A stretch of 28,322 nt of DNA from an uncultured archaeon. GTDB taxonomy: Archaea; Asgardarchaeota; Thorarchaeia; Thorarchaeales; CAZPUN01. A program made the position numbers and the translations under genes. The notes beneath the pieces are model-generated. The model did not search any database and had not been told where the DNA came from. It saw only the letters and a list, made by a program, of their open reading frames with translations. The stretch spans positions 1-28,322 of the forward strand of contig CAZPUN010000061.1 in assembly GCA_964589775.1 (NCBI GenBank). The letters run 5' to 3'. Positions 25,797 through 26,536 of the stretch are shown here, one piece after another. Positions within the stretch are counted from its first letter, which is position 1. Every line of letters begins with the position of its first letter.

Positions 25797-26417
25797 ATGC
25801 AATGGAACATTCTTGATTTTAAATACGCGTGGCGAATATCTATTATTGGATTTATTGCTACTTATGTCGGAATTTTCTTATCTGTATATCTTTCGAGTTC
25901 ATGGTTTTCATGGACTGAGAATGCTCTCAGTGATATCGGCGTCAATGATGCTGCTATTATTTTTAACTCTAGTATGTTTATTGGTGGTATTTCTAGTGGA
26001 ATTTTTGCTATTGCCTACATTATGCGACAAGAACGTAAGTTGCCTATAGTTGCAGGATATGTTATTTTGCTGCAATCGATCTTTTTGTTCTGTATTGGTT
26101 TATTTGTTGAAGGGACTCGATTCTATGGCATTAATCTTCATGTGTTGGTCGCAATGCTTTTCTTCTTACTGATTCCGATTTCGATGCTCATTGTTCTTCT
26201 TGATTGGGTTAGAAATTCAGCAATTCGAAAATATGCGATTGTCCCATTAGTTCTAAGCTTTGTGACACCTCTTCTCATAATATATCGACCATGGCACGGA
26301 GTCGCAATTCCCGAGATTCTGTCATCTGGGACTTTTGCTATATGGATCGCTTTCCTGACATATATGGAGCTCTATGTATTTTCAAAAGGGGTTCAAGATT
26401 CAGTTAATGGAGCGTAA
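25797..26417 (+). CDS. DUF998-family membrane protein (paralog 2)
   Basis: WFSWTENALSDIG, LFCIGLFVE, INLH, GVAIPE; clearly similar to 2202..2825. Confidence 0.82.
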   Translation: MQWNILDFKYAWRISIIGFIATYVGIFLSVYLSSSWFSWTENALSDIGVNDAAIIFNSSMFIGGISSGIFAIAYIMRQERKLPIVAGYVILLQSIFLFCIGLFVEGTRFYGINLHVLVAMLFFLLIPISMLIVLLDWVRNSAIRKYAIVPLVLSFVTPLLIIYRPWHGVAIPEILSSGTFAIWIAFLTYMELYVFSKGVQDSVNGA

Positions 26418-26485
26418 TGCAACCAATAGCTGTAAGCTACAGTGTTGCGTATTTTCAAAAGGGGTTCAAGATTCAGTTAATGGAG
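26376..26485 (+). repeat. Perfect 37-bp direct repeat (26376-26412, 26449-26485) separated by a 36-nt unique insert
   Basis: GTATTTTCAAAAGGGGTTCAAGATTCAGTTAATGGAG occurs twice; insert CGTAATGCAACCAATAGCTGTAAGCTACAGTGTTGC. Confidence 0.95.
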
Positions 26486-26536
26486 ATGATAGCGAATAAA
26501 TTTAATTTTTTAATTAAAAAAGTGGAAAAAAGAGTT

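Follow-up and report, generated by a model that had tools for sequence, protein, structure and literature searches.

Background

Cas1-Cas2 attaches a piece of DNA the size of a spacer by its two ends, one to each strand, at points separated by one repeat length, and repair then duplicates the stretch between the two joints. Nivala, Shipman and Church (2018) reportedly described neo-CRISPR loci that originate from non-canonical integration by the type I-E Cas1-Cas2 of Escherichia coli. Neo-CRISPR units arise from off-target activity of Cas1-Cas2 in E. coli strains that overproduce these proteins, and circumstantial cases are given for two other species (10.1101/148544, PMC7054753, PMC6698737). 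In Pyrococcus furiosus, off-target integration by Cas1-Cas2 was found in vitro at repeat-like sites (PMC6698737), and de novo arrays have been described that arose by duplication of omega-RNA segments adjacent to TnpB (PMC10691335). The reaction itself is known experimentally; spacer integration outside arrays in nature is sparsely represented in print.

Here we describe a repeat-insert-repeat unit at the end of a membrane-protein gene in an uncultured archaeon of the Thorarchaeales. It occupies positions 26376-26485 of the window, by which we mean the whole stretch of 28,322 nucleotides that was analysed (Table 1). Like the neo-CRISPR loci, it combines a spacer-sized insert with a repeat-length duplication of non-CRISPR chromosomal DNA, and such units are found at several unrelated sites; unlike those of E. 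coli, it comes from a wild archaeon whose CRISPR modules are of types I-A and III and in whose assembly no cas1 was found. With the P. furiosus system it shares the archaeal setting, and there adaptation proteins integrate at non-CRISPR DNA, but the off-target sites in that system are repeat-like whereas the target described here has no detectable likeness to a repeat (only a second unit, at C5:12753, has such a likeness). The unit at C21:44375 appears similar to the arrays derived from omega-RNA in that it duplicates the final 37 bp of an element with an IS200/IS605-like end; unlike those arrays, the target at the present locus is protein-coding, and in the genome no protein passes the Pfam cut-off for TnpB. 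In its workings the unit resembles a neo-CRISPR unit and is a putative member of that class, although its target shows no likeness to the native repeats.

Table 1. Features of the locus and its surroundings (positions in the window) and clean solo units in the genome (contig:position)
Feature	Position	Strand	Basis or remark
DUF998 membrane-protein gene, its tail being the target	25797..26417	+	PF06197 match; present end ..SVNGA and stop, the stop inside the insert
Copy 1 of 37-bp target duplication, coding	26376..26412	+	exact repeat
36-nt unique insert, putative misplaced spacer	26413..26448	.	no source match; hairpin 26419-26448
Copy 2, same as copy 1, non-coding now	26449..26485	+	exact repeat
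Presumed original last codons, DDSE and stop	26486..26499	+	inferred, in-silico empty allele
Short T/A-tract gap between convergent genes, likely terminators	26500..26536	.	inferred from sequence
Convergent Sec23/24-like vWA gene, neighbour only	26537..28084	-	domain match
Final 30-nt repeat of a genuine CRISPR array truncated at the contig end	28293..28322	-	1.8 kb from the unit
Clean solo unit, this locus	26376..26485		duplication 37, insert 36
Clean solo unit	C5:12753		duplication 37, insert 38
Clean solo unit	C21:44375		duplication 37, insert 36
Clean solo unit	C53:453		duplication 32, insert 39
Clean solo unit	C7:54603		duplication 29, insert 39

The unit and the gene that carries it

The two copies are identical over exactly 37 nt and enclose an insert of 36 nt; the coordinates, lengths and translation given in a preliminary description of the window are all as described there. 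Neither the 37-mer nor the insert occurs anywhere else in the 2.16-Mb genome, even when 9 mismatches are allowed, and about 5e-14 exact 37-bp repeats with a period of 60-80 are expected by chance in this genome. Compared with its flanks in register, the insert (44% GC) matches at 6 and at 9 of its 36 positions, and this dissimilarity to both flanks excludes a decayed tandem duplication. Its self-complementarity, pointed out before, was recovered as a hairpin at 26419-26448 that is genuine but of modest stability (-6.1 kcal/mol when folded as DNA, with z -2.4; z -3.4 for the opposite strand). We rejected a bona fide CRISPR array as a description of the unit, the repeat being present in two copies only, unique in the genome, coding, unlike the native repeats and without a fold.

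The support for the structure so far comes from assembled contigs, which leaves room for an assembly artefact. The same 260 bases are found in an ENA contig (k141_359616) the ends of which differ from those of the window, the two assemblies possibly deriving from the same reads, and a Logan contig of SRR8542060 ends 29 nt into copy 2, about where branching of the assembly graph would occur. Both are assembly-level data and are compatible with a genuine duplication. Adapter sequence is absent, and the two copies of the unit on C21 (see below) differ from each other; we consider an artefact extremely improbable.

The product of the DUF998 gene is 206 aa long and matches PF06197 over residues 16-188 (E 5.9e-18), and the duplicated stretch falls downstream of this domain. 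The convergent neighbour, being Sec23/24-like, suggests an Asgard archaeon as the host. The open reading frame runs through copy 1 and stops five bases into the insert, and in-silico deletion of the insert and one copy restores an end that reads ..SVNGDDSE, with the stop at 26497-26499. Because the change to the protein is limited to the tail past the Pfam domain, the scar is probably neutral: it would only replace the last four residues of the tail by one, which may be why it survived. The unit is most likely a neutral scar without a role as a working array, and the insertion is probably of no consequence.

The view that copy 2 marks the original gene end remains plausible, given the T-tract that follows it, but the tails of the paralogs decide neither way. 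The window contains another DUF998 gene, at 2187-2825, which shares 52% identity with the target gene. This paralog is relevant to the opposite reading, in which the insert, with its alanine, stop and hairpin, is the native gene end and copy 2 is new, produced either by template switching or by a local 73-bp duplication after which the second hairpin was lost. Consistent with that reading, the frame meets a stop as soon as it enters the insert, the insert is more stably folded than its shuffled versions, and the paralog ends in an alanine followed by the stop, 37 aa counted from the AIPE motif to the end, as in the present allele (40 aa in the empty allele). However, alignment of the DNA of the paralog ends favoured neither tail (p 0.14 versus 0.39 and 0.46 versus 0.085), a sister paralog continues for seven residues after SVNG, and the T-tracts of the paralogs lie directly 3' of the stop, resembling the flank of copy 2. 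A native end in the insert also leaves unexplained the four other units, which are of like size and have inserts that lack structure, as well as C21, where the insert is demonstrably new, and we regard it as improbable.

An uninterrupted allele ending in ..NGDDSE, for which the preliminary description proposed to look among orthologs, was not found. A close genome was sought in GTDB and none was present, with sequence clustering giving a cluster of one; among the JGI relatives, identity in the domain does not exceed ~40%; and the sister species at NCBI holds only the ortholog of the paralog, with a different gene adjoining its Sec23-like gene.

Similar units elsewhere in the genome

Isolated exact repeats of at least 24 nt within 3 kb number 13 genome-wide, six of which have a period of 68-75 (binomial 2e-7 under a log-uniform null, for a size window that was picked after looking at the data). 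In a stricter scan five of seven were kept at this period (6e-4, the window being likewise post hoc). The five clean units (Table 1) have duplications of 29-37, inserts of 36-39 and periods of 68-75, and three of them combine a 37-bp duplication with an insert of 36-38 nt. Their targets are mutually unrelated, as would be expected of a ruler-type integrase, and the inserts are likewise unrelated to one another. A hairpin was sought in the other four inserts and was absent, these being unstructured; we therefore rejected it as a general feature of the inserts, and the hairpin peculiar to the insert at 26413-26448 probably stems from the fragment that was captured.

Several other candidates were left out of the count: C50:1926 (insert alike to the upstream flank at 17 of 39 positions), C13:50211 (inside a tRNA-like gene), C9:23663 (a tandem duplication) and C5:72 (in frame within an open frame, with a further repeat pair beside it when the contig is taken untrimmed). 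The G or GT with which several targets start is a weak, post hoc feature and was set aside as evidence. The untrimmed start of C5 (1-290), a short way 5' of the type I-A operon, carries two different repeat-insert-repeat pairs in a row, with periods of 75 and 72, which represent either a decayed array or serial insertions. The tRNA-like gene at C13:50140-50320, judged by eye, appears to have a long, internally repeated intron in its T-loop.

The direction of the event can be read at C21. The unit at C21:44375-44484 coincides with the very end of a multicopy element that by resemblance is IS200/IS605-like, with an omega-RNA-like end. In 14 other aligned copies of this element, one of which lies at 22902-22983 of the window, the 37-mer is present once and the insert is absent, while the two copies in the unit differ by one mismatch. 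At C21, the insert is new and the target was duplicated. By parsimony, the same process would have acted at 26376-26485, and with five units at CRISPR-like periods, one of which has internal empty alleles, insertion is a stronger reading than it was from the window alone.

The short terminal complementarity of the insert might point to the remnant of a mobile element, be it a MITE, an IS end or the att-site scar that had been put forward as an alternative. The insert is however single-copy, has no Rfam match and does not lie at a tRNA; the adjacent genes scanned contain no integrase or transposase, the five inserts are mutually unrelated, and related assemblies have so far yielded no longer element that terminates in the insert. 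Moreover, excision at att sites normally leaves one att copy and not two plus filler. We rejected this class for a single-copy insert with no recombinase in the neighbours scanned, and such an origin is very improbable.

CRISPR arrays and cas genes

The native array that runs from the end of C48 to the start of C54 has a 36-nt repeat, spacers of 38-40 nt and periods of 74-76. Two further arrays, one at the end of the window and the other at the end of C64, have a 30-nt repeat and spacers of 40-52 nt; the ENA contig shows 4 repeats at the window-end array, with spacers of 47, 40 and 42. The spacers of the arrays with the 30-nt repeat (also found at L012:12-260) are unusually long and variable, and a near-identical repeat of Archaeoglobaceae has periods of 66-69. 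Lone dispersed copies of the 36-nt repeat were observed at C40:13479, C44:5908, C50:1260, C26:4656, C53:869, C30:5358 and C34:16201, several of them preceded by the leader-like sequence of the array and closely followed by a gene; these are either collapsed arrays or a mobile leader-repeat unit. At the site syntenic to the 36-nt-repeat array (L237:8988-10001), both array and repeat are absent from the sister species (GCA_053940065.1), indicating that this array was recently gained or lost.

The genome encodes type III modules that include cas6, along with an effector operon of type I-A. For Logan contig SRR8542060_6948, the product of a type III RAMP gene was recorded as translating only when TGA is read as W, possibly an artefact of gene calling. 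We found no cas1, cas2 or cas4 in the 96.75%-complete assembly. Since the cas operons of C5 and C39 begin at contig starts and both arrays with the 30-nt repeat run off contig ends, the adaptation genes may be unassembled; their being unassembled and their being lost are equally possible, and the contigs, when followed beyond the breaks, did not reach adaptation genes. The preliminary description had considered that a lineage devoid of cas1 would speak against its reading, and although none was found in this assembly, cas1 is present in 17 of the 60 genomes of the order. The cas1-bearing relatives have 37-nt repeats at periods of 71-81 and 31-nt repeats at periods of 67-70.

The dimensions of the unit are close to those of the native arrays, with a duplication of 37 versus repeats of 36 and 30, an insert of 36 versus spacers of 38-40 and 40-52, and a period of 73 versus 74-76. 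The fit is within one or two bases and inexact; 37 and 36, earlier called typical repeat and spacer sizes, are indeed near those of the arrays in the lineage but do not equal the native repeat lengths. The possibility that the 37-mer would match the CRISPR repeats of the genome was not borne out, this target showing no similarity to the native repeats (p 0.13 to 0.76, the value of 0.13 being that for the 36-nt repeat). The target at C5:12753 aligns over its whole length with the native repeat (p 0.0007 in a set of 30 comparisons) and is the only one to do so, the other four being without such likeness. For the insert, for which a viral, plasmid or host source had been envisaged, no protospacer match beyond chance and no PAM was found in the host, IMG/VR, GTDB genomes, phages and plasmids. 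The spacers of the native arrays likewise gave no convincing match in the sequences searched.

A sample of 1.2 Mb from two cas1-positive relatives and one of equal size from two cas1-negative single-contig relatives contained no units, the latter comparison having low power. The two groups thus do not differ, and this genome looks enriched in units relative to all sampled relatives (p 0.024). The cas1-positive relatives without units suggest that the presence of cas1 is insufficient for units at this rate.

These observations have a bearing on a Cas1-independent process, for instance an undescribed integrase or the capture of fragments during repair of staggered breaks, that would insert pieces of 35-40 nt and generate duplications of 30-37 bp. 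The lack of cas1 and cas2 in the assembly is in line with such a process, as are the four of five targets that are unlike native repeats and the lack of units in the sampled cas1-positive relatives. On the other hand, duplication and insert alike agree in size with the CRISPR repeats and spacers of the lineage, the target at C5:12753 does resemble a native repeat, and the two cas1-negative relatives carry no units in the 1.2 Mb covered, albeit at low power. We know of no described enzyme other than Cas1-Cas2 with a footprint of this kind, and consider a Cas1-independent origin rather unlikely.

Proposed mechanism

Off-target spacer integration by Cas1-Cas2 is the best reading of the unit, with a probability that we put at roughly 0.62. 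The X-Y-X structure recurs in this genome at spacer-like dimensions. A Cas1-Cas2 complex loaded with a prespacer of ~36 nt would have missed the leader-repeat junction and acted at an ordinary chromosomal site, where the two 3' ends of the prespacer would be joined, one to each strand, at positions separated by roughly a repeat length; gap filling would then duplicate the 37 bp between the cuts. Of the off-target integration proposed in the preliminary description, the insertion with a repeat-length duplication thus stands as the best reading, while Cas1-Cas2 is the putative agent, judged by the dimensions of the units, and the same process would have acted at this locus, judged by C21.

Biological implications

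Integration outside arrays bears on the origins of CRISPR arrays and on Cas1-Cas2 as a cause of small insertions in host genes. The five clean scars, one of them with internal empty alleles, are useful comparative material, and the unit on C21, located at an end that resembles that of an omega-RNA, bears on ideas about the birth of arrays from omega-RNA ends. A wider and more doubtful proposal is that an unusually promiscuous spacer-integration activity, either a relaxed Cas1-Cas2 or an undescribed integrase, seeds units across the chromosome, including at the omega-RNA-like end. If true, such promiscuous integration would allow the birth of new arrays to be followed in natural populations.
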